This document shows, piece by piece, positions 29,754 to 50,773 of a stretch of 64,000 bases of DNA. Position 1 is the first letter of the stretch; each line of letters opens with the position of its first letter. The position numbers and the translations under genes are program-made. The notes under the pieces were generated by a model, which was given only the letters and a program-made list of their open reading frames with translations, made no database searches and was not told the DNA's origin. This DNA is from Kiritimatiellia bacterium (GTDB taxonomy: Bacteria > Verrucomicrobiota > Kiritimatiellia > CAIKKV01): contig JBIIYJ010000002.1 in NCBI GenBank assembly GCA_044346855.1, positions 1,089 to 65,088 of the forward strand, read 5' to 3'.

Positions 29754-30662
29754 TCACCCGACAAACCAGCGGATCTCGTTCCGCATCGGCAGGTCCTCGA
29801 ACGCCAGGGTGTAGGGGTCGCAGCGCCGGTAGACGTTCCGCCCGTCCGTCCGCAGCACCAGCCAGCCGAAATCCCACCCCCGGCTCCGGTAGCGCAGGGG
29901 CGCGCCTGGCGCCACGCGGATCATCGGATGTGTCCCCGCAATGAACAGCTTCTGCTCGCGGTAGTAATAGCAGGACCCGACCTCCACGAACAAGTCATGC
30001 CTCGGGGCGCCCGCCTCGCCGCCCAGCCCGGCGCACACGCCCGCGATGCCGGCCTTGACGGAACAGCCGCCCGCGAACGCCTCGGCCAGCGCCGCCACCG
30101 AGCCGGACAGGACCCCGCCGTCCGCGTCATGGTGCAGGACCGGCTCCCAGCGGTCGCGGAGGAAATACCTGAAGAACCCGAAATCGTAGATGAAATTGTG
30201 GCTGGGCGCGTTCGTCCCCTGGTCCCAGCTGTCCAGCACATGATACTTCGGCATGTTCGCGGGCGGCTGGTCGGGCGAACGGCCGATGGCGCCGGAGGCG
30301 GGCAGCCCGTCCAGGTGGGGCCGGGCAATCGACTGCGAGCCGTCCTGGTTGTAGAGGAAGAACGACAGGGAGGGGCGCGCGCCGAAACCGGTCGGCAGCT
30401 CGACCGGCTGGCGCAGGCTCATGATGCCCGCGGACCAGCGGTCCTCGACCAGGTAGGTCACGCCGAATTCCGCCACCTCGAGAATGGGCTCCGGATTGGA
30501 GGACGCCACGTCGATATGCTCGTTGTGGATGAACTCCGTGCCGATCCTCAGGTCCGCCCCCCGGCGGATCCCGTCCGCCAGCGCGGCCGCGCTCCCTTTG
30601 GCAATGCGGCGGTCGGAGGCCAGCTCAAGAACGCAGGTCCATTGATTCATGACGCGCACCAT
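29754..30662 (-). CDS. Hypothetical protein, abuts the upstream URO-D-like gene with no intergenic gap
   Basis: 302 aa with non-shadow composition (W/Y/F/D-rich). The start abuts the stop of 30663..31691. No family recognised. Confidence 0.6.
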   Translation of the reverse strand: MVRVMNQWTCVLELASDRRIAKGSAAALADGIRRGADLRIGTEFIHNEHIDVASSNPEPILEVAEFGVTYLVEDRWSAGIMSLRQPVELPTGFGARPSLSFFLYNQDGSQSIARPHLDGLPASGAIGRSPDQPPANMPKYHVLDSWDQGTNAPSHNFIYDFGFFRYFLRDRWEPVLHHDADGGVLSGSVAALAEAFAGGCSVKAGIAGVCAGLGGEAGAPRHDLFVEVGSCYYYREQKLFIAGTHPMIRVAPGAPLRYRSRGWDFGWLVLRTDGRNVYRRCDPYTLAFEDLPMRNEIRWFVG

Positions 30663-31691
30663 TCACCTCTCCAGCGCTGCCTGCGCCATGGCCTCCAGGT
30701 TCCGGGGCGGCACATTGGGCAGAAGGGCCTCGTGGCTGGGGCTAACGATCAGCCGCGGTCCCAGCAGCCGCTTCAGCCGCCGGACCTCCGCCCGCACCTC
30801 CTCCGCCGTCCCGTGCACCATCAGTTCCTGGGTGTCTACGCCGCCCATGAAGGAGATCCGACCCTTGAAATCGCGGGCCAGAGTTTCGGCATCCATATCG
30901 GCCGCCCTGGCCTGGAGCGGATGGAGCCCGTCGACCCCGGCGTCGATGAGCCGGCCGATCACCTTGTGAATCGCACCGCAGGAATGAAGAATGGCCTGGT
31001 AGCCGTGCGCGTGAGCCTGTTGCGTGAAACGCTCGAACCAGGGGAGAATAAACTGGTCGAACTGCGCCGGCCCGCAGATCAGGTCGAGCTGCGTCCCGAA
31101 ATCGTTTCCGAAAAAATAGCCGTCCACGAGGCTGCCGGCCTTCTTGAAAAAACGCTCGTTCGCTTCGAAGTAAAAGCCGCACACCCGGTCCGTCACGCCC
31201 TGCACCACCTCCGGATGGGTATACATTTTCACCATGTAATTCTCCATCCCGAACAGGTCCATGACATTGTGGTAAAAGCACGTCCAGAACCCGCTGGCCC
31301 GGTAAAAATCGCCCGCCCGGCCCAGCGCCTCCAGGCACTGGTCGAATTTCAGGCAATCGGGATCCGGCCAGGGAAACCCGTCCAGCTCGCGCACGTCCTC
31401 GCAATCCGCCAGCGGCCCGGACTGGCCGTGGCTTTTCTTCTCCAGCCCGGCGGTGAACATCCCCCGGCCCTGGGGGTCGCGGTAGGCGTCGGAAAAAAAT
31501 TGGGGACAGATCCAGCGGACGTCGTCCTTCAGCTTCAGCCTCAGTTCCTCCTCGGATTTTGTCCCGAAATACGAATGAAGCCCCGGCCAGCTGTCAGGGT
31601 GGGGATTGCCCAGCCACAACCCGCAGCGGTCCGCGGGTTTCCCGGCGATAATGGAACGGATCCGTTCGCGACTGTTCATGCCCTGCATCAT
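30663..31691 (-). CDS. Uroporphyrinogen decarboxylase (URO-D)-like family protein
   Basis: 342 aa. MNSRERIRSIIAGKPADR, GYQAILHSCGAIHKVIGRLIDAGVDGLHPLQ and PRLIVSPSHEALLPNVPPRNLEAM are typical URO-D/MtbA-like features. Confidence 0.8.
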   Translation of the reverse strand: MMQGMNSRERIRSIIAGKPADRCGLWLGNPHPDSWPGLHSYFGTKSEEELRLKLKDDVRWICPQFFSDAYRDPQGRGMFTAGLEKKSHGQSGPLADCEDVRELDGFPWPDPDCLKFDQCLEALGRAGDFYRASGFWTCFYHNVMDLFGMENYMVKMYTHPEVVQGVTDRVCGFYFEANERFFKKAGSLVDGYFFGNDFGTQLDLICGPAQFDQFILPWFERFTQQAHAHGYQAILHSCGAIHKVIGRLIDAGVDGLHPLQARAADMDAETLARDFKGRISFMGGVDTQELMVHGTAEEVRAEVRRLKRLLGPRLIVSPSHEALLPNVPPRNLEAMAQAALER

Positions 31692-37654: not shown

Positions 37655-38998
37655 ATGGAAATGGAGAACGCGCTAAACGTCATTTCGGGCTGCGTCTGGG
37701 GCTGGCCCCTGATCATCCTCCTGGTCGGAACCCATCTGTTCCTGACCTTCCGGCTGGGCTTCATCCAGCGGCACATTTTCACGGCCATCAAGATCTCGTT
37801 CACCCGCAGCAAGGAGGGAGACGGCGAAATCAGCCATTTCGGCGCCCTCACCACGGCGCTGGCAGCCACCATCGGCACGGGCAACATCGTGGGCGTGGCC
37901 ACGGCCATCTGCGCGGGCGGGCCCGGGGCCGTGCTCTGGATGTGGCTGACGGGCGTGTTCGGCATCGCCACCAAGTACGGCGAGGCGGTGCTGGCCGTGA
38001 AATACCGGATCAAGCGGCCGGATGGCTCCATGGCCGGCGGGCCGATGTATGCCCTGGAATTCGGCTTGAAAGCCCGCTGGCTGGGGATCGTGTTCGCCAT
38101 TTTCACGGCCATCGCCGCGTTCGGCATCGGCAACATGGTGCAGGCCAACTCCATCGCCACCATGCTGGAGAACTCCTATCACGTGCCGGTCTGGGCGTCG
38201 GGCGTGGTCATGACCCTGTTCACCGGCCTGGTCATCCTGGGCGGCATCCGCTCCATCGCGCGGGTGTGTGAATTCCTGGTTCCCTTCATGGCCGTCTTCT
38301 ACGTGCTGGGCTGCGTGGCCCTGCTGGTCCTCGGCTGGCACACGATTCCCGCCACGATCAAGCTGATCCTGTCCTCCGCCTTCACCGGCCATGCTGCGGT
38401 CGGTGGATTCCTCGGCGCGGGCGTCAAGCAGGCCGTCCAGTACGGCATCGCCCGCGGCCTGTTCTCGAACGAGTCCGGGCTCGGCAGCGCGCCCATCGTG
38501 GCGGCGGCGGCCCAGACGCGCAACCCGGTCCGCCAGGCACTCGTCTCCTCCACCGGCACGTTCTGGGACACGGTGGTCGTCTGCCTCGCCACCGGGATCG
38601 TGCTGGTCAACTCGGGACTCTGGACGCAAGGCCTGGACGGGACGAAGCTCACCCACGCCGCCTTCGGCGCCTTTCCCGGCGTGGGCCCGGCCATCCTCAC
38701 CGTGGGCCTGCTGACGTTCGTCTTTTCCACCATCCTGGGCTGGTCCTACTACGGCGAGAAAGCCATCGAGTACCTGCTGGGATCCCGGATGATCCGCCCG
38801 TACCGGTGGCTCTGGGTGGCGGCCGTCATGGCGGGCTCGGTATTGTCCCTGAAATCGGTCTGGGCGTTCGCCGACATCGCCAACGGCCTGATGGCGGTTC
38901 CCAACCTCATCGCGCTGATCCTGCTGTCGCCCGTGATCGCGGCGGAAACGAAACTGCATTTGCCCGGAGAACTGTCATGCCGAAAGGATCCCTCATGA
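37655..38998 (+). CDS. Alanine/glycine:cation symporter (AGCS family)
   Basis: 447 aa. GEISHFGALTTALAATIGTGNIVGVATAICAGGPGAVLWMW and GLFSNESGLGSAPI are AGCS hallmarks. Confidence 0.9.
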   Translation: MEMENALNVISGCVWGWPLIILLVGTHLFLTFRLGFIQRHIFTAIKISFTRSKEGDGEISHFGALTTALAATIGTGNIVGVATAICAGGPGAVLWMWLTGVFGIATKYGEAVLAVKYRIKRPDGSMAGGPMYALEFGLKARWLGIVFAIFTAIAAFGIGNMVQANSIATMLENSYHVPVWASGVVMTLFTGLVILGGIRSIARVCEFLVPFMAVFYVLGCVALLVLGWHTIPATIKLILSSAFTGHAAVGGFLGAGVKQAVQYGIARGLFSNESGLGSAPIVAAAAQTRNPVRQALVSSTGTFWDTVVVCLATGIVLVNSGLWTQGLDGTKLTHAAFGAFPGVGPAILTVGLLTFVFSTILGWSYYGEKAIEYLLGSRMIRPYRWLWVAAVMAGSVLSLKSVWAFADIANGLMAVPNLIALILLSPVIAAETKLHLPGELSCRKDPS

Positions 38999-39738
38999 GC
39001 CGCCTGGCCTGCTGCCTGACTTTGTCCGCGCCCTGCCTGGCCGCCGGCGACCTCAAGCCGTCCGAAGCCGAAACGGCCGCTCCGGCCCGCTCGCCCGCGC
39101 AGCTCGCCTGGGAGGCGCAGCTGGGGCCGTCGGAAAAAAAGGATCCGGCCTACGCCTTCGTGAAGGACGATCCCGCCCTGCCCCGGGTGCTGCTGATCGG
39201 CGACTCGATCTCGGTCGGCTACACCCCCGTCGTGCGCGAGGCGCTCAAGGGCAAGGCGAACGTGCACCGCATCCCGGAGAACGGGGGCGACACCTGGCGC
39301 GGCCTGGCCAAGCTGAACGCGTGGCTCTCCACCGGGACATGGGACGTCATCCATTTCAACTTCGGACTCCACGACCTCAAGCACATGAAGGACAACAAGC
39401 TGGACCTGGCAGGCGAACAGATTTCAACGCTGGAAGCGTACTCGGTCAACCTGGACAAGCTGGTGGTCGAGCTGAAGAAAACCGGCGCCGCGCTCGTCTG
39501 GGCGACCACCACGCCGGTGCCGGAAGGCGCGAACGGGCGGCTGAAGGGCGACGAGGTGCTCTACAACGCCGCCGCCCTCAGGGTCATGGCCGCGCACGGC
39601 GTGACGGTGAACGACCTGTATGCCGAGGTGTTCCCGGTGCTGGAGCAGAACCAGCGCCCCCGCGACGTCCACTACACGCCCGATGGCTATCGGTTCCTCG
39701 GCCGGAAAGTGGCCGCCGAAATCCTCAAGGCGCTGTGA
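38977..39738 (+). CDS. Secreted SGNH/GDSL-type hydrolase
   Basis: VLLIGDSISVGY is block I (GDS), and WDVIHFNFGLHD and DVHYTPDGY are further blocks. Signal peptide is MSRLACCLTLSAPCLAA. The start is either 38977 or 38995; the latter forms an ATGA overlap with the AGCS stop. Confidence 0.8.
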   Translation: MPKGSLMSRLACCLTLSAPCLAAGDLKPSEAETAAPARSPAQLAWEAQLGPSEKKDPAYAFVKDDPALPRVLLIGDSISVGYTPVVREALKGKANVHRIPENGGDTWRGLAKLNAWLSTGTWDVIHFNFGLHDLKHMKDNKLDLAGEQISTLEAYSVNLDKLVVELKKTGAALVWATTTPVPEGANGRLKGDEVLYNAAALRVMAAHGVTVNDLYAEVFPVLEQNQRPRDVHYTPDGYRFLGRKVAAEILKAL

Positions 39739-41825
39739 GCATCCTCCTCGAACTCGGGGAGCCGTTCGGCGCGGGCTTCCTCGAATGCCCCGGGGCTCCG
39801 CCCCTCCGGCGCTTCGCCCGCGCCTGGCGGCGCTGGCTCGAGGCGGGGCCGCTGCCGGCCTGCGGGGGCGGCCCGCTTTACCCCGCCGGCCCCCGCCCCG
39901 CGGCCGGCGCCGCGGTCATGACCCCCTCCTACTCCTTCACGTTCGCCTGGGACGGCGCCCTCTTCGAGCGAAGAGCCCCCGCCTGGACCCCGGGCCAGCG
40001 CGCCGCCATGGAGGCGCTGCGGGCGGCGGCGGACGAGGAGAACCGGAAAGTGGAAGCACTCCAGTCGCCCCACACCGTGGGAGGCAACGGCTACACGCAC
40101 GGCATCGTCAACTTCGGCCGGGTGCTGGCGGAGGGCCTCGACGGCTACGAAACGCGGATCCGGGTTTGTTTCGCTAATAGGGACGAAGCCGGGCGCGATT
40201 TCGACGCGGCCATGCTCGACCTGCTGGCGGGCATCCGGACCTGGGTGGACCGGCTCCTGGCCGAGCTGCGGGACAGCCCGCCCGCGCCGGGGCGCGACCG
40301 CCTGATCGCCGCGTTCGAGCGCGTTCCCTTCAAGCCCGCCCGGACATTTTACGAGGCCATGGTCGCCTACAATGCGATCTACTATCTGGACGAGTGCGAC
40401 AACCCGGGCCGGCTCGACCAGGTGCTCTGGCCCTATTACCGCGCCGCACCCGACCGGGCGGAGGCGGTCGCGCTGCTCCGCGCATTCGCGGACAATGTCA
40501 GCGCCGTCGGGGGCTGGAGCGCGGCCCTGGGCGGGACGCGGGAGGATGGCTCGCCGGCTTACCAGGAGCTGACCGAGATCGTGCTCGAGGCGACCCGGGG
40601 CCGCTTCAGGCCGTCGCTGGAGCTGCGCGTGCGGCCCGACATGCCCGACCGGCTCTGGGAGGCGGCCCTCGATTCGCTTGCCTCGGGGAACGGGCAGCCC
40701 GCCTTCTATAACGAGACGGAATATCTGGCCGGCCTGGACGATCCCGCCCTGGGCCTGAGCGTCCGGGACCGGATGGAATGGAATGGCGGCGGGTGCACCG
40801 AGACCATGATCCACGGCTGCTCGAACGTGGGCTCGCTCGACGCCGGGTTCAATCTGCCGCTGGTGCTGACCGGATCGCTCAACCGCTCGCTGGCGGATGC
40901 GAACGCGACATTCGATGGGGTGCTGGACGCGTTCCTGGCGGACATGCGCGAAGCGGTCCGGGATGTGCTGGGCCAGCTCAACCGGCATTTCGCCGCCCGC
41001 GCGATTTACCGTCCGCAGCCGATGCGCTCGCTGCTGGTGGACGATTGCGTGGGGCGCGGACGGGATTTCAACGACGGCGGCGCGCGGTACAACTGGTCGG
41101 TGGTCAACGTGGCGGGCGTGGCCAACGCGGCGGACTCGCTGGCCGCGCTGCGGCGGGTGGTGTTCGAGGAGCGGCGGGTCACGCCCCCGCACATGCGGGA
41201 AATCCTGGCCGCGAACTTCGAAGGCCAGGAAACGCTGCGGCTCCAGCTTGCGGCGGCTCCCAAGTTCGGCAACGACGAGCCGGAGGTGGACGCCCTGGCG
41301 GTCAAGGTGGCGGCGTTCGTGTATGGCGAAATCAGGGCCTTCCCCTGCGCCCGCGGCGGGCGGTTCCTGCCGTCGCACATCATGTTCGAGCGGTATGCGG
41401 CGGCGGGCCGGGCGGTGGGCGCCACGCCGGACGGCCGGCGGGCGGGCGAGGCGCTGGCGGATTCGGCGGGGCCGGTGCAGGGCTGCGACCGCAACGGGCC
41501 CACGGCGATGCTGAGGAGCGTGGCGCGGCTGCCGCAGCGGCTGGCCGTGGGAACGCCGGTGCTAAATTTGCGGATTCAGAAGGCCAGCCTGGCCGGCGCC
41601 GTGTCGCGCCGGGCGTTGCGCTCCCTGATCGAGACGTATTTCAAAATGGGCGGCCTGCAGGTGCAGATCACGGCGCTGGACCGGGCCGAGCTCGAGGACG
41701 CCCTGCTCCACCCCGAAAAACATGCGGGGCTCATCGTCCGCATCGGCGGCTACTCGGCCTACTTCAACACGCTGTCCCTGGACTTGAAAAAGGAAGTCCT
41801 CAAGCGGACCGAATACGCGGTGTGA
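39735..41825 (+). CDS. Glycyl radical enzyme, PFL2/dehydratase-like, unusually short (about 696 aa)
   Basis: C-terminal glycyl-radical motif is LIVRIGGYSAYFNTLS, and the Cys loop is EWNGGGCTETMIHG. The start is proposed at GTG 39735 (GTGA overlap with the SGNH stop); the alternative ATG is at 39918. The upstream part of the track ORF is a shadow of the SGNH gene. Confidence 0.85.
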   Translation: MSILLELGEPFGAGFLECPGAPPLRRFARAWRRWLEAGPLPACGGGPLYPAGPRPAAGAAVMTPSYSFTFAWDGALFERRAPAWTPGQRAAMEALRAAADEENRKVEALQSPHTVGGNGYTHGIVNFGRVLAEGLDGYETRIRVCFANRDEAGRDFDAAMLDLLAGIRTWVDRLLAELRDSPPAPGRDRLIAAFERVPFKPARTFYEAMVAYNAIYYLDECDNPGRLDQVLWPYYRAAPDRAEAVALLRAFADNVSAVGGWSAALGGTREDGSPAYQELTEIVLEATRGRFRPSLELRVRPDMPDRLWEAALDSLASGNGQPAFYNETEYLAGLDDPALGLSVRDRMEWNGGGCTETMIHGCSNVGSLDAGFNLPLVLTGSLNRSLADANATFDGVLDAFLADMREAVRDVLGQLNRHFAARAIYRPQPMRSLLVDDCVGRGRDFNDGGARYNWSVVNVAGVANAADSLAALRRVVFEERRVTPPHMREILAANFEGQETLRLQLAAAPKFGNDEPEVDALAVKVAAFVYGEIRAFPCARGGRFLPSHIMFERYAAAGRAVGATPDGRRAGEALADSAGPVQGCDRNGPTAMLRSVARLPQRLAVGTPVLNLRIQKASLAGAVSRRALRSLIETYFKMGGLQVQITALDRAELEDALLHPEKHAGLIVRIGGYSAYFNTLSLDLKKEVLKRTEYAV

Positions 41826-41864
41826 GTGCGCGTCAGCGGCGGCAGACCGGGCGTGTGAGTCGCT

Positions 41865-42605
41865 TTACAGCGGCGGCATATAATGCGTTAGAACGAAGTT
41901 GTCGAAATACATGTCGTCGTCGAACTGAAGCCAGAATCCTTCCGATTCGGCCAGTAGGGCGGACTTGATCGAGACTGAGTTGAACGGGACGCTCCAGAGC
42001 GTGTTCAGCCTGATGTTGAAAGGCAGCCGGGTCCAGACGGTATCCCGCGGCCGCCGCCAAAAGAAAGTCGTTTTGTCTGTCAGGCAACTATACCGGAGCT
42101 TCAGGTAGAGGTTGCGAGTGCCCGCCGGAAAGGTGAATCGCCGAACGCCGCCGCTGCCGCCCGACCCGCCATAGCTGACGAACAGGGTCCTGAGAAGGGG
42201 CGTCATTTCGACGGCAAAGTTGACGGAGTTCACCGCATTCGCGGGGTCGGTCCATAACAAGCCAAGGCGGATCACGGCGCCCGGCTCGGAAGACGGGTAA
42301 ACCGGCAGGCTGATCAAGGCGGTGGTTTCCAATACATCGGCATCGACCAGGACACGGGCGGCTTTCAAGCGCCACAGGGCAAATGTGCTGTCAAGCAGAT
42401 CCTCATCGCCGGTCGAGAAATAGAGACGCTGATTGACCTCCAGGAGCTGGGTCGATGGGTCGAAGGCGCTTTTCTGCCAAAGCAATCTGTTCCGGATTCC
42501 ATCGTTGAAGTCATCGGACACCACCGTGGCGGGAGCCCCGCCTTTTTCCTGGGCGAATCCGGAAAACGCTACAAGTACCGCCAGACAGGCAATCCACCAT
42601 TTCAT
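41865..42605 (-). CDS. Secreted hypothetical protein (possible jelly-roll/LamG-like), lower GC
   Basis: Start at MKWWIACLAVLVAFSGFAQE (signal peptide). Beta-rich and W/F/Y/D-rich. No family recognised. Confidence 0.6.
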   Translation of the reverse strand: MKWWIACLAVLVAFSGFAQEKGGAPATVVSDDFNDGIRNRLLWQKSAFDPSTQLLEVNQRLYFSTGDEDLLDSTFALWRLKAARVLVDADVLETTALISLPVYPSSEPGAVIRLGLLWTDPANAVNSVNFAVEMTPLLRTLFVSYGGSGGSGGVRRFTFPAGTRNLYLKLRYSCLTDKTTFFWRRPRDTVWTRLPFNIRLNTLWSVPFNSVSIKSALLAESEGFWLQFDDDMYFDNFVLTHYMPPL

Positions 42606-42772
42606 TGAAACACCTTTCTTTAAAAAACATATTATAATACAGTCATAATCTTGTGGCAATCAGGAAGAAAGCGAACCTGCGATTTTAATAGCCAACGCGT
42701 GTGGCCCGTGTCACTTATTGACGATTGCGTCGCCGGCGGCCTGCCTGCTATAATGATGACACTTTTCAGCGT

Positions 42773-42849
42773 GCCCCCGTAGCTCAGCTGGACAGAGCAT
42801 CGGATTTCTAATCCGACGGTCGCGTGTTCGAGCCACGCCGGGGGTGCCA
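42773..42849 (+). tRNA. tRNA-Arg (anticodon TCT), CCA encoded
   Basis: Manual cloverleaf: acceptor GCCCCCG/CGGGGGT; D arm GCTC-AGCTGGACA-GAGC; anticodon arm TCGGA-TTTCTAA-TCCGA (TCT); variable CGGTC; T arm GCGTG-TTCGAGC-CACGC; discriminator G plus CCA. A TATAAT box sits at 42749-42754, 18 nt upstream. Confidence 0.9.
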
Positions 42850-43039
42850 TGCAGCAGAGTTTCGCCTCAGACGCCCTTCACCCGCAAATCATGATCCTTG
42901 CTGTCGAGGCGAAACACGCTGCATGGCTACCGGGCACCGTGGTTTGACGAGTCTTCGAGGCAAAGCTCTGGTGCCCGGTGCCAGCTGCAACTGCGGAGAA
43001 AATGCTCATGCACATTTCCCCCTTGCTTCTCATCACCAC

Positions 43040-49631: not shown

Positions 49632-49744
49632 TCTCCCCTCCGCCATGCGTATCGTGATGGACAAAAAGGCGATAGTCGTGTATTTTGTTAATCGTTTAAG
49701 TGCTTTTTATCAATTTTCCGGAGAATTGTCAAGAGAGACGGAAC

Positions 49745-50773
49745 ATGGCCATTACACTAGCCGATGTGGCCCGCAAGGCCTGTGTTTCCACGGCGGCGGT
49801 TTCCAACGCACTCCGCAAAAATGCCCGGGACGCCTGCGTGCGCGAGTCCACCCACGCCCGCATTCTTGCCGCCGCGAAAGAGCTTCGCTACCAGCCCAAC
49901 CCTTTCGCCGCCTCCCTCCGCACCCGCCGCACTCGCACCCTCGCCCTCTTCCTGCCGGGCGATATCCGCGCCTTTTTCTACCACCCAAACAACGCCCTTC
50001 GCTTCGGCAGCCTCGTGGCCCACATCGCCTCCCTCGGCTACCGGATCACCCTGCTCGACCAGAAGTGGGCCTTCCCGCCCGACCCCCGTTTGGTGGACGG
50101 GTGCCTCTTCCTGGGGTGGATTGCCGAAAACCACCTGGCCGAAGTGGAGCGGCTCGCGGCGCAGATACCCGTTCTCTGCGCCTTGCAACCCGTCTCCCGC
50201 GCCATCCGGTTGAACCAGGACGAAAGCAATTCGCGCCGCGTAGGCGCCCGGTTGGCCGCCGTTTACCTCTACGGCCTCGGCCACCGCCGAATCGCCATCG
50301 TCGACATCCGCCAGCACGACGGGTCGGTCAGCCGTACCCGCCTCTCCGTCTTTGAGTCCCTTGCCCGCCAGCGCCGCCTCGTCGTTCGCCTTTCCCACTT
50401 CGGCGAGCGCTGGGAGGAACGGCTCTACCCGTCTTGCGAGGCCATCCTGGCTCTCAAACCCCTCCCCACCGCCGTCGTGGCTCTCGACGACGACCATGCG
50501 CGCGTCCTCATCGATCACCTGACCCTCACCGGACAGCGTGTCCCGCGCCACGTGTCCGTGTTCAGCGGCGACAGCACGCCGGGCGGCTTCCAGAGTGTCC
50601 CGCCCCTGACGGGGATCCAATATGGCCGCGACGCCGCCCATCGCCTGCTGGTCGAGCAATTCATCGAGATCGTGGAAGCGCGCTCGTCCGCCGACAAAAT
50701 CGTGTTGCCTCCTCCCGCCGTGCAGTTGGTGGAGGGCCAGTCCTGCCGCGCATGGAAAGGAAAACTGCCGTGA
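49745..50773 (+). CDS. LacI-family transcriptional regulator
   Basis: The ATG at 49745 gives MAITLADVARKACVSTAAVSNALRKN...RILAAAKELRYQPN (HTH_LacI), followed by a periplasmic-binding-fold-like sensor domain. Confidence 0.9.
   Translation: MAITLADVARKACVSTAAVSNALRKNARDACVRESTHARILAAAKELRYQPNPFAASLRTRRTRTLALFLPGDIRAFFYHPNNALRFGSLVAHIASLGYRITLLDQKWAFPPDPRLVDGCLFLGWIAENHLAEVERLAAQIPVLCALQPVSRAIRLNQDESNSRRVGARLAAVYLYGLGHRRIAIVDIRQHDGSVSRTRLSVFESLARQRRLVVRLSHFGERWEERLYPSCEAILALKPLPTAVVALDDDHARVLIDHLTLTGQRVPRHVSVFSGDSTPGGFQSVPPLTGIQYGRDAAHRLLVEQFIEIVEARSSADKIVLPPPAVQLVEGQSCRAWKGKLP

Follow-up and report, generated by a model that had tools for sequence, protein, structure and literature searches.

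We analyze the glycyl radical enzyme (GRE) encoded at positions 39735-41825 of a 64,000-nucleotide stretch of DNA from a Kiritimatiellia bacterium (GenBank assembly GCA_044346855.1, contig JBIIYJ010000002.1), which we call the window. The GRE gene is the last of three overlapping genes, downstream of an AGCS-family symporter gene and an SGNH hydrolase gene. We consider it likely that this protein is a functional, compact eliminase of the CXE type, activated in trans, and that it belongs to an uncharacterized clade of PFL2-like enzymes linked to glycan-degrading bacteria. GREs perform chemically difficult reactions in the absence of oxygen and, to our knowledge, each new assignment of a GRE clade has so far brought to light an anaerobic pathway not known before, such as those of choline, hydroxyproline, isethionate or anhydro-sugars. 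A 2026 review stresses that whole GRE clades still await experimental validation (PMC13450708).

The protein carries both GRE domains above their gathering scores (PFL-like, PF02901, E = 3.1e-69; Gly_radical, PF01228, E = 7e-23 at residues 575-678). It also has the GGGCTE cysteine loop and the RIGGYSAYF glycine loop, by which a preliminary description of this DNA had recognized it. Across 66 aligned relatives, C354, E356 and H122 are invariant (66/66), as are R669, G671, G672 and F677 of the glycine loop. The start at GTG 39735, proposed in the same description as giving about 696 amino acids (aa), is confirmed by the public gene call (P0004, 696 aa) and by relatives whose N-termini align from GRE residue 1-4. 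The reading frame is open back to 39321, with no alternative start codon near the family's N-terminus; a longer start at GTG 39321 (834 aa) was rejected because its extra stretch is an out-of-frame overlap with the SGNH gene and has no homology in the relatives. Compared with its ortholog in a congeneric genome (G003, the sister species; 74% identity), the gene has a ratio of nonsynonymous to synonymous divergence (dN/dS) of 0.25 at a dS of 0.75, equal to the ratio of the SGNH gene, and its sequence recurs nearly unchanged in about 20 metagenomes. The GRE is under purifying selection.

The preliminary description had found the GRE unusually short and had suspected missing N-terminal helices. 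The shortness is real, but it reflects a clade-wide compaction of a complete barrel rather than N-terminal helices missing from this gene alone. A homolog search over 5.8 billion proteins provided 8000 candidates for scoring, among which 671 clusters (90% identity) match the GRE at E ≤ 0.001. The best 120 of these 671 clusters score at least 737 bits at 48-76% identity and are mostly full-length proteins of 694-757 aa, together with a few fragments and one 786-aa sequence; relatives aligned at 100% coverage are 694-726 aa long. In the 66-sequence alignment, conservation of the N-terminus sets in at residue 4 (L4, E9, F11, G14, E17, A30, R33, E36), and the sister-species ortholog starts just three residues earlier. 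Because this N-terminus is common to hundreds of relatives of 660-750 aa, the short length is a trait of the clade and not the product of a mis-called start. A second scan, of 1.84 billion representatives at 50% identity, found about 45-50 representatives of 660-750 aa that match the GRE from residue ~3 to residue ~695. Weaker matches begin only at residue ~100-120, and consequently we regard the first 110 residues as specific to the clade. More than 150 uncharacterized representatives outscore the best solved enzyme.

An AlphaFold (AF2) model built on the family alignment is of high predicted quality (pLDDT 92.6, pTM 0.92), and Foldseek superimposes it on whole GRE barrels, with a TMq of 0.88 to the glycerol dehydratase of Clostridium butyricum (1R8W/1R9D) and 0.87-0.88 to the propanediol dehydratase of Roseburia inulinivorans (5I2A/5I2G), at 26% identity. 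The predicted fold thus appears complete, with no discrete element lost. In the HMMER alignment to 1R8W, GRE residues 114-695 correspond to residues 153-786; of the 91 residues by which the GRE is shorter, about 39 lie before the barrel and about 52 are spread over many short loop deletions. The two dehydratases share with the GRE the ten-stranded barrel, the CXE cysteine loop, the counterpart of His164 and the C-terminal glycine loop, with a PflA-type activase expected, and they are its best solved sequence matches (E = 4e-70 and 2e-66). In contrast to these enzymes, the GRE has no adjacent activase and no microcompartment context, and its N-terminal 110 residues are homologous only inside its own clade.

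We placed the GRE in a maximum-likelihood tree of 91 sequences, comprising clade members, neighboring paralogs, the five GREs of the host genome and E. coli YbiW, PflD and PflB. The GGGCTE-type clade has 100% SH-aLRT support and a stem of 1.6 changes per site; YbiW, PflD, PflB and the four other GREs of the genome all fall outside it. Its distance from glycerol dehydratase, propanediol dehydratase, CutC, HypD and IslA is given by the hidden Markov model scores, phmmer searches of the PDB and Foldseek. After the start had been checked, the GRE still did not fall into any characterized clade at normal length, in agreement with the preliminary description. The clade is hosted by Kiritimatiellia, Lentisphaerota, Planctomycetota, Chloroflexota, Clostridia and other uncultured anaerobes, and its taxa are intermixed: one Chloroflexia sequence and two Bacillota sequences are nested among those of Kiritimatiellia. 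This mixing indicates that clade genes have been exchanged horizontally among anaerobes. A search of the literature on GREs of Kiritimatiellae and other degraders of sulfated glycans returned nothing on the clade. It is a large, compact and uncharacterized group, defined by its GGGC-T-E-TM and RIGGY loops.

The GRE does not belong to any of the characterized families against which we scored it. The preliminary description had judged it a mismatch to the choline, glycerol, propanediol, hydroxyproline and isethionate systems, and all NCBIfam equivalogs indeed fail by a wide margin. The model for PFL2-3/glycerol dehydratase (TIGR01774) gives 269.3 bits against a cut-off of 678.2 and covers residues 261-694 only. 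The PflD-type model NF007437 gives 237 bits (cut-off 1109), and the equivalog models give 222 bits for HypD (cut-off 1100), 197 and 195 bits for HpsG and HpfG (cut-off 1000), 187 bits for CutC (cut-off 1050), 181 bits for indoleacetate decarboxylase (cut-off 1100) and 138 bits for hydroxyphenylacetate (HPA) decarboxylase (cut-off 1150); pyruvate formate-lyase (TIGR01255) gives 89 bits (cut-off 994). Solved chains score at nearly one level (glycerol dehydratase 240, propanediol dehydratase 228, PflD 226, HplG 200, YbiW 195, HypD 188 and CutC 183 bits), and Foldseek identities to solved GREs are 18-27%.

CutC, HypD, IslA, IseG and HpsG share the CXE eliminase logic of the GRE, but their equivalog scores fall short by a factor of 4-5 and their gene contexts differ; the two-Arg plus one-Gln sulfonate anchor of the C-S lyases is not seen among the residues invariant in the GRE clade, although no rigorous search for it was made. 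Pyruvate formate-lyases (PflB/TdcE) have an adjacent Cys-Cys pair, whereas the GRE has a single Cys in GGGCTE, and PflB is the most distant tip of the tree. YbiW and PflD (8ID7, 8ID0, 8YJO), the isomerases of 1,5-anhydroglucitol-6-phosphate and 1,5-anhydromannitol-6-phosphate, score about 195-226 bits with a TMq of 0.85-0.86. Their E. coli genes are accompanied by the adjacent activase genes ybiY and pflC and by phosphotransferase system (PTS), phosphatase and aldolase partners, and none of these is present at the GRE locus. Since YbiW and PflD are CXE-type GREs that directly attack sugar-derived rings, radical C-O cleavage already has a precedent in the catabolism of carbohydrates (PMC13450708).

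According to the 2026 review, no GRE eliminase or isomerase lacks the CXE motif, the Glu of which is hydrogen-bonded to a substrate hydroxyl, and His164 of glycerol dehydratase protonates the leaving hydroxyl (PMC13450708). C354 and E356 of the GRE align with C433 and E435 of this enzyme, and H122 aligns with H164. From its residues, we infer that the GRE catalyzes a CXE-type elimination or isomerization at a hydroxylated carbon. Besides H164, the substrate-binding set of glycerol dehydratase consists of H281, S282, Y339, D447 and Y640. In the GRE the tripeptide NGH281 is deleted, and C221-D222-N223, of which D222 and N223 are invariant, stands in place of S282-I-S. The loop that carries Y339 is deleted, Ile549 takes the position of Y640, and D447 aligns with L368, adjacent to D/E369. 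Since these other glycerol contacts are not kept, the substrate is predicted to differ from those of all solved enzymes. Within the clade a different set of residues is invariant (H113, T121, N213, D219, D222, N223, R226 and R431, with W261 in 65/66), and the cysteine loop is conserved over an unusual length.

The proposed reaction would begin when a radical-SAM activase encoded elsewhere in the genome places a radical on Gly672. The radical would then move from Gly672 to Cys354, and the resulting thiyl radical would take a hydrogen atom from a substrate carbon that bears a hydroxyl group. Glu356 would deprotonate the substrate's hydroxyl while His122 protonates the neighboring leaving group. 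The outcome would be either a 1,2-elimination, as in a dehydratase, or a ring-opening isomerization.

We now turn to the source of the activase. The preliminary description had reported that no activase is encoded in the window and had called the GRE activase-less. The former statement stands: tblastn with two activases finds no match in the window, and there is no TIGR02494 or PF04055 match on the 67-kb contig that contains it (C39). A hidden activase was sought with the same tools and with a scan for CxxxCxxC, and was rejected; the only open reading frame (ORF) of the window with this motif encodes a Cys-rich DUF326 protein of 112 aa that is not a radical-SAM enzyme. The latter statement fails at the scale of the genome. 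The host assembly (5.7 Mb in 542 contigs, 89% complete) encodes five GREs, on contigs C39, C53, C521, C269 and C84, with mutual identities of 26-33% and with four of the five in open frames shorter than ~780 aa. It also encodes two intact TIGR02494 activases. One, at C53:4483-5478, directly follows the C53 GRE gene (335 bits), and the other is at C521:10329-11627 (309 bits); on C84, an internal deletion has left only a remnant of an activase, covering model positions 1-33 and 204-285. Measured against the activases that adjoin orthologs of the window's GRE, the C53 activase reaches 50% identity and the C521 activase 37-39%; we therefore infer that the former is the better candidate, with C521 as the alternative.

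In this clade, activases are as a rule distant or shared. Among 80 related loci from other genomes, an activase lies within 10 kb of the clade GRE in only 11. All 20 other genomes with a clade member that were tested nevertheless have at least one TIGR02494 activase above the cut-off, and in several of them, including one with a complete 3.4-Mb contig, the nearest is more than 200 kb from the GRE. Where activases are close, they may be shared: one locus (L015) has a single activase among three tandem short GREs, the last of which is a 64%-identical ortholog of the window's GRE, and two others have the orders GRE-activase-ortholog (L033) and GRE-ortholog-activase (L034). Two further ideas were examined and set aside. 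The radical-SAM gene directly upstream of the sister species' GRE ortholog, considered as a non-canonical activase, encodes HydE (TIGR03956, 301.6 bits against a cut-off of 254.6), and the C53 GRE is not convincingly the ortholog of the companion GRE beside the shared activases in L033, L034 and L015 (~31-33% identity, weak grouping). As a separate observation, a second clade of short GREs, with the glycine loop RIGGYTDYF, occurs in tandem with the GGGCTE clade and a single activase. The arrangement looks like a horizontally mobile module of two GREs and one activase.

We reproduced the start/stop overlaps reported earlier: the stop codon of the symporter gene overlaps the SGNH start in the ATGA at 38995-38998, and the SGNH stop overlaps the GRE start in the GTGA at 39735-39738. 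A simple scan of the plus strand within the three-gene block found no internal site resembling a promoter or terminator. Because the four-base overlaps are real, the symporter, SGNH and GRE genes are probably co-transcribed. Both junctions are crossed by single unitigs of four independent lake-water metagenomes (for example, one covering 38731-42850; others cover 39153-42830 and 39289-42831), so the arrangement is not an assembly artifact; a chimera at the SGNH/GRE junction was ruled out by these unitigs from independent runs.

The gene order is nevertheless confined to one species. In the sister species, contig C31 keeps the window's order with a 302-aa gene (72% identical), a URO-D-like gene (87%), a peptidyl-prolyl isomerase (PPIase) gene (75%), the sulfatase gene (81%), the AGCS gene (95%) and the SGNH gene (82%). 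The SGNH gene is then followed not by a GRE but by a VTT/DedA-domain gene and a serine recombinase gene. The GRE ortholog is on another contig (C199), immediately after hydE (TIGR03956 above cut-off), while the hydE ortholog of the window's genome (C158) is followed by unrelated DNA. The SGNH protein of the window ends three residues before that of the sister species (...KAL* compared with ...KALPRR*), which places a rearrangement breakpoint at the GTGA. The site looks recombination-prone, given the lower-GC ORF and the tRNA-Arg gene downstream of the GRE and the serine recombinase gene that follows SGNH in the sister species. Among the 80 related loci, an SGNH homolog is near the GRE in none, and an AGCS gene is within 10 kb in one, a Clostridia locus (L092) where it is two genes away. 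The order AGCS-SGNH-GRE is therefore a species-specific rearrangement, a recent juxtaposition and not a conserved pathway. As a side observation, the AGCS gene is 95% identical to that of the sister species (L122:3899-5239) with a dS of 0.11, far below the values of 0.48 for SGNH and 0.75 for the GRE between the same two genomes. This low divergence may reflect either a recent exchange or very strong constraint on the transporter.

The neighborhoods of the clade are highly variable across the 80 loci. A tally of Pfam families at most two positions away from the GRE took in 249 genes from 79 loci. Those that recur include AraC-type regulators (16, nearly all of them in Clostridia), Radical_SAM activases (13) and URO-D-like proteins (7), as well as short-chain dehydrogenases/reductases (SDRs), GT4 glycosyltransferases and beta-helix proteins. 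The 25 most frequent neighbor families listed per batch include neither AGCS nor SGNH, and neither microcompartment genes nor aldehyde or alcohol dehydrogenase partners recur among the neighbors. The only clearly conserved neighborhood we found is in five Anaerolineae/Thermoflexales loci (L042, L048, L053, L070, L107), where an aldehyde:ferredoxin oxidoreductase, a DapA-like aldolase, in some cases a sulfatase, a beta-helix protein, a URO-D-like protein and the GRE are encoded in this order, with a divergent GT4 glycosyltransferase. A sulfatase lies within 10 kb of a clade GRE in six loci, the window included, and one GRE homolog is located among GH38, GH65, AXE1 and LacI genes. Because the hosts live as anaerobic glycan degraders and because these neighbors (AraC, URO-D, sulfatase, DapA, aldehyde:ferredoxin oxidoreductase, glycoside hydrolases) recur, the substrate is more likely to be a diol, polyol or sugar derived from glycans than an amino acid. 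The window's own URO-D/MtaA-like gene, its two genes for giant PcRGLX-like proteins and its LacI regulators likewise fit a part in anaerobic glycan catabolism, though as a weak signal. We also observe that URO-D/MtaA-like proteins are near clade members in at least 9 of the 80 loci, in several phyla; the host genomes are rich in such paralogs, and no corrinoid partner was noticed beside them in these loci.

A more specific proposal, which we hold only tentatively, is that the GGGC-T-E-TM/RIGGY clade performs a new GRE reaction, in which a monosaccharide or sugar alcohol derived from a glycan would itself undergo radical 1,2-elimination or ring opening. A deoxy-, O-methyl- or O-sulfo-sugar might, for instance, lose water, methanol or sulfate. 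The clade often shares a module with the second clade of short GREs and one activase for both. If this proposal is true, anaerobic glycan degraders of many phyla carry a horizontally exchanged toolkit of compact 'radical carbohydrate enzymes', for which few activases suffice.

Several observations weigh against our view of the GRE as a trans-activated eliminase of a glycan-linked clade. The glycine loops of the GREs that belong to the candidate activases' contigs (RVSGFSQYF for C53, RVAGFSAFF for C521) differ from RIGGYSAYF, and activase specificity is thought to depend partly on this loop (PMC13450708); for these two reasons, the cognate activase could lie in the unassembled ~11% of the genome. 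The substrate contacts H281, S282, Y339 and Y640 are deleted or replaced, and the clade is biochemically uncharacterized throughout. The link to glycans, drawn from such variable neighborhoods, is statistical and weak. The GTGA overlap could have been selected for the joint action of the three products in this species. Finally, three small metatranscriptomes from the same samples are uninformative, with one fragment on the 3' end of the AGCS gene and otherwise only tRNA matches.

The rival explanations can be compared using the same evidence. The preliminary description had hinted at a pathway for a small amino-acid-like or esterified substrate. In such a pathway, the secreted esterase would free an amino-acid-like compound, AgcS would import it and the GRE would cleave it by C-N or C-O elimination; the cytoplasmic sulfatase may additionally act on a sulfated precursor. 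The overlaps that join the three genes, with no promoter or terminator found between them, are what such a pathway would lead one to expect, and the junction is fixed in a natural population sampled by many lake metagenomes. The Clostridia locus with an AGCS gene two genes from its clade GRE, the invariant acidic residues D219 and D222, which, in a pocket region placed by sequence alignment, could bind an amine, and the naming of the sulfatase's nearest solved relatives as choline-sulfatases point in the same direction. Yet the sister species keeps sulfatase, AGCS and SGNH together while its GRE ortholog follows hydE elsewhere, and the survey of related loci finds SGNH in 0/80 and AGCS in 1/80. 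The commonest neighbors in the clade are instead sugar-type regulators, URO-D-like proteins and activases, and the CutC and HypD models fail. Asp216 of CutC, which binds the trimethylammonium group of choline, occupies a position that we read as that of His164 in glycerol dehydratase, and there the GRE clade has an invariant His. We find this pathway quite improbable, and the hint that suggested it unsupported. A different rival treats the clade as a compact, isofunctional dehydratase of small diols (1,2-propanediol, glycerol or ethylene glycol) that would feed aldehydes to aldehyde oxidoreductases during the fermentation of fucose or rhamnose from sulfated glycans. Glycerol and propanediol dehydratase are the closest solved structures by both sequence and fold, the His/Cys/Glu set of glycerol dehydratase is conserved with D/E369 adjoining the D447 position, and in the Anaerolineae loci the GRE has a DapA-like aldolase, a sulfatase and an aldehyde:ferredoxin oxidoreductase for neighbors. 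Its chemistry is not assured, however, because several glycerol contacts are deleted or replaced (H281/S282 deleted or exchanged for C221-D222-N223, Y339 deleted, Y640 to Ile). The identity is only 26%, the score is far under the PFL2-3 cut-off, and microcompartment and aldehyde/alcohol dehydrogenase genes are not recurrent neighbors. In addition, short GREs of divergent sequence occur next to one another within single genomes, a sign that they may differ in substrate. On balance we rate this dehydratase as unlikely.

The gene might instead be a displaced relic, stranded without an activase and non-functional. It has been relocated relative to the sister species and has no adjacent activase, another GRE of the same genome (C84) adjoins the remnant of a deleted activase gene, and no GRE RNA appears in the three small metatranscriptomes. 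Against this, the reading frame is unbroken, and by definition the protein retains all positions invariant in the 66-sequence alignment, the catalytic ones included; the dN/dS of 0.25 and the near-identical sequence in about 20 metagenomes are also at odds with decay, and an orphan placement is normal for the clade. We consider a relic very improbable. A functional, trans-activated eliminase accounts for the intact catalytic residues and the purifying selection, and it is the reading that we prefer.

The clade is of wider interest than the locus. It has a wide distribution among uncultured organisms that break down sulfated and other complex glycans, in lakes and sediments as well as in digesters and guts; its members, of about 700 aa, are exchanged across phyla and usually come without an activase of their own. 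Gene neighborhood is a poor guide to the clade's function, which will have to be sought by substrate screening. Several GREs probably share one activase, which would make heterologous activation easier, and a small, well-predicted GRE is attractive for structure determination and engineering. The biology of the window is otherwise ordinary, its eye-catching operon being a species-specific juxtaposition, and the locus shows how gene context can mislead. The clade deserves biochemical study, to which this locus alone adds little more.

Coordinates of the GRE, its catalytic motifs, neighboring genes and related loci (positions refer to the window unless a contig or locus is named).
Feature	Positions	Strand	Remarks
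Glycyl radical enzyme (GRE), 696 aa	39735-41825	+	PF02901 + PF01228
His122	40098-40100	+	counterpart of glycerol dehydratase His164 (HMMER alignment to 1R8W); clade-invariant
Cys loop W349-G371	40779-40847	+	WNGGGC354-T-E356-TMxHGCSNVGSL(D/E)AG; thiyl-radical Cys354, CXE Glu356
Glycine loop R669-I-G-G672-Y-S-A-Y-F677	41739-41765	+	G672 is the predicted radical site
SGNH/GDSL hydrolase, 247 aa	38995-39738	+	PF13472; GDSIS motif; probable signal peptide
Na+/alanine(glycine) symporter, AGCS family, 447 aa	37655-38998	+	TIGR00835, AgcS 6CSE
Cys-type S1 sulfatase, 520 aa	36046-37608	-	PF00884 E 5e-39; C72-V-P-A-R formylglycine motif; no signal peptide (cytoplasmic)
Other GRE loci of the host genome (G000)	C53 2412-5478, C521 6940-11627, C269 1193-3418, C84 5160-7865		three in ~700-780-aa frames
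Two-GRE/one-activase loci	L033:6926-12097, L034:1553-6798, L039:7776-13006, L015:2799-10118, L085		Kiritimatiellota, Planctomycetota, Bacillota
URO-D-like genes near GRE	L042, L053, L070, L107, L105, L062, L064, L067, L069
DUF326 Cys-rich protein, 112 aa	29334-29672	+	CxxxCxxC
302-aa gene	29754-30662
URO-D/MtaA-like gene	30663-31691	-	8 kb upstream of GRE
PMT_2-like gene, 851 aa	33481-36036	+	glycosyltransferase family 39-like, weak match
Orphan ORF, 264 aa	within 41865-42849		lower GC
tRNA-Arg(TCT)	42773-42849		downstream of GRE
PcRGLX-like gene, ~1200 aa	44247-47846	-	exo-rhamnogalacturonan-lyase-type domain
LacI-family regulator	49700-50773
PcRGLX-like gene, ~1200 aa	51216-54716	+	exo-rhamnogalacturonan-lyase-type domain

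The partners of the GRE at this locus, in a window with a GC content of 60-74%, vary in how firmly they can be named. The symporter and the sulfatase were correctly recognized in the preliminary description, as TIGR00835 and PF00884 confirm. The symporter scores 491.8 bits against a TIGR00835 cut-off of 272.65, and its residues 3-434 match Methanococcus AgcS (6CSE) at E = 4.7e-127. The sulfatase gene is divergent from the three-gene block; its nearest solved chains carry the name choline-sulfatase (7OZ8, E = 3.5e-55), and its score is below the choline-sulfatase equivalog cut-off (192 compared with 433 bits). The SGNH protein is barely above the PF13472 cut-off (34.7 compared with 32.9 bits) and has a solved match in 4H08 (E = 1.6e-11). 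Its GDSIS and FNFGLHD blocks are present, and its block V reads D-V-H (DxH) where the usual form is DxxH. Its N-terminus (MSR-LACCLTLSAPCLA, followed by AG) looks like a signal peptide, a reading made by eye alone, on which the description of the protein as secreted depends.

Further genes of the window were noted in passing. The orphan ORF directly downstream of the GRE has no Pfam or NCBIfam match. The PMT_2-like gene lies between the PPIase and sulfatase genes and is absent from the syntenic position of the sister species' genome. Beyond the tRNA-Arg gene, the LacI-family regulator gene stands between the two PcRGLX-like genes.

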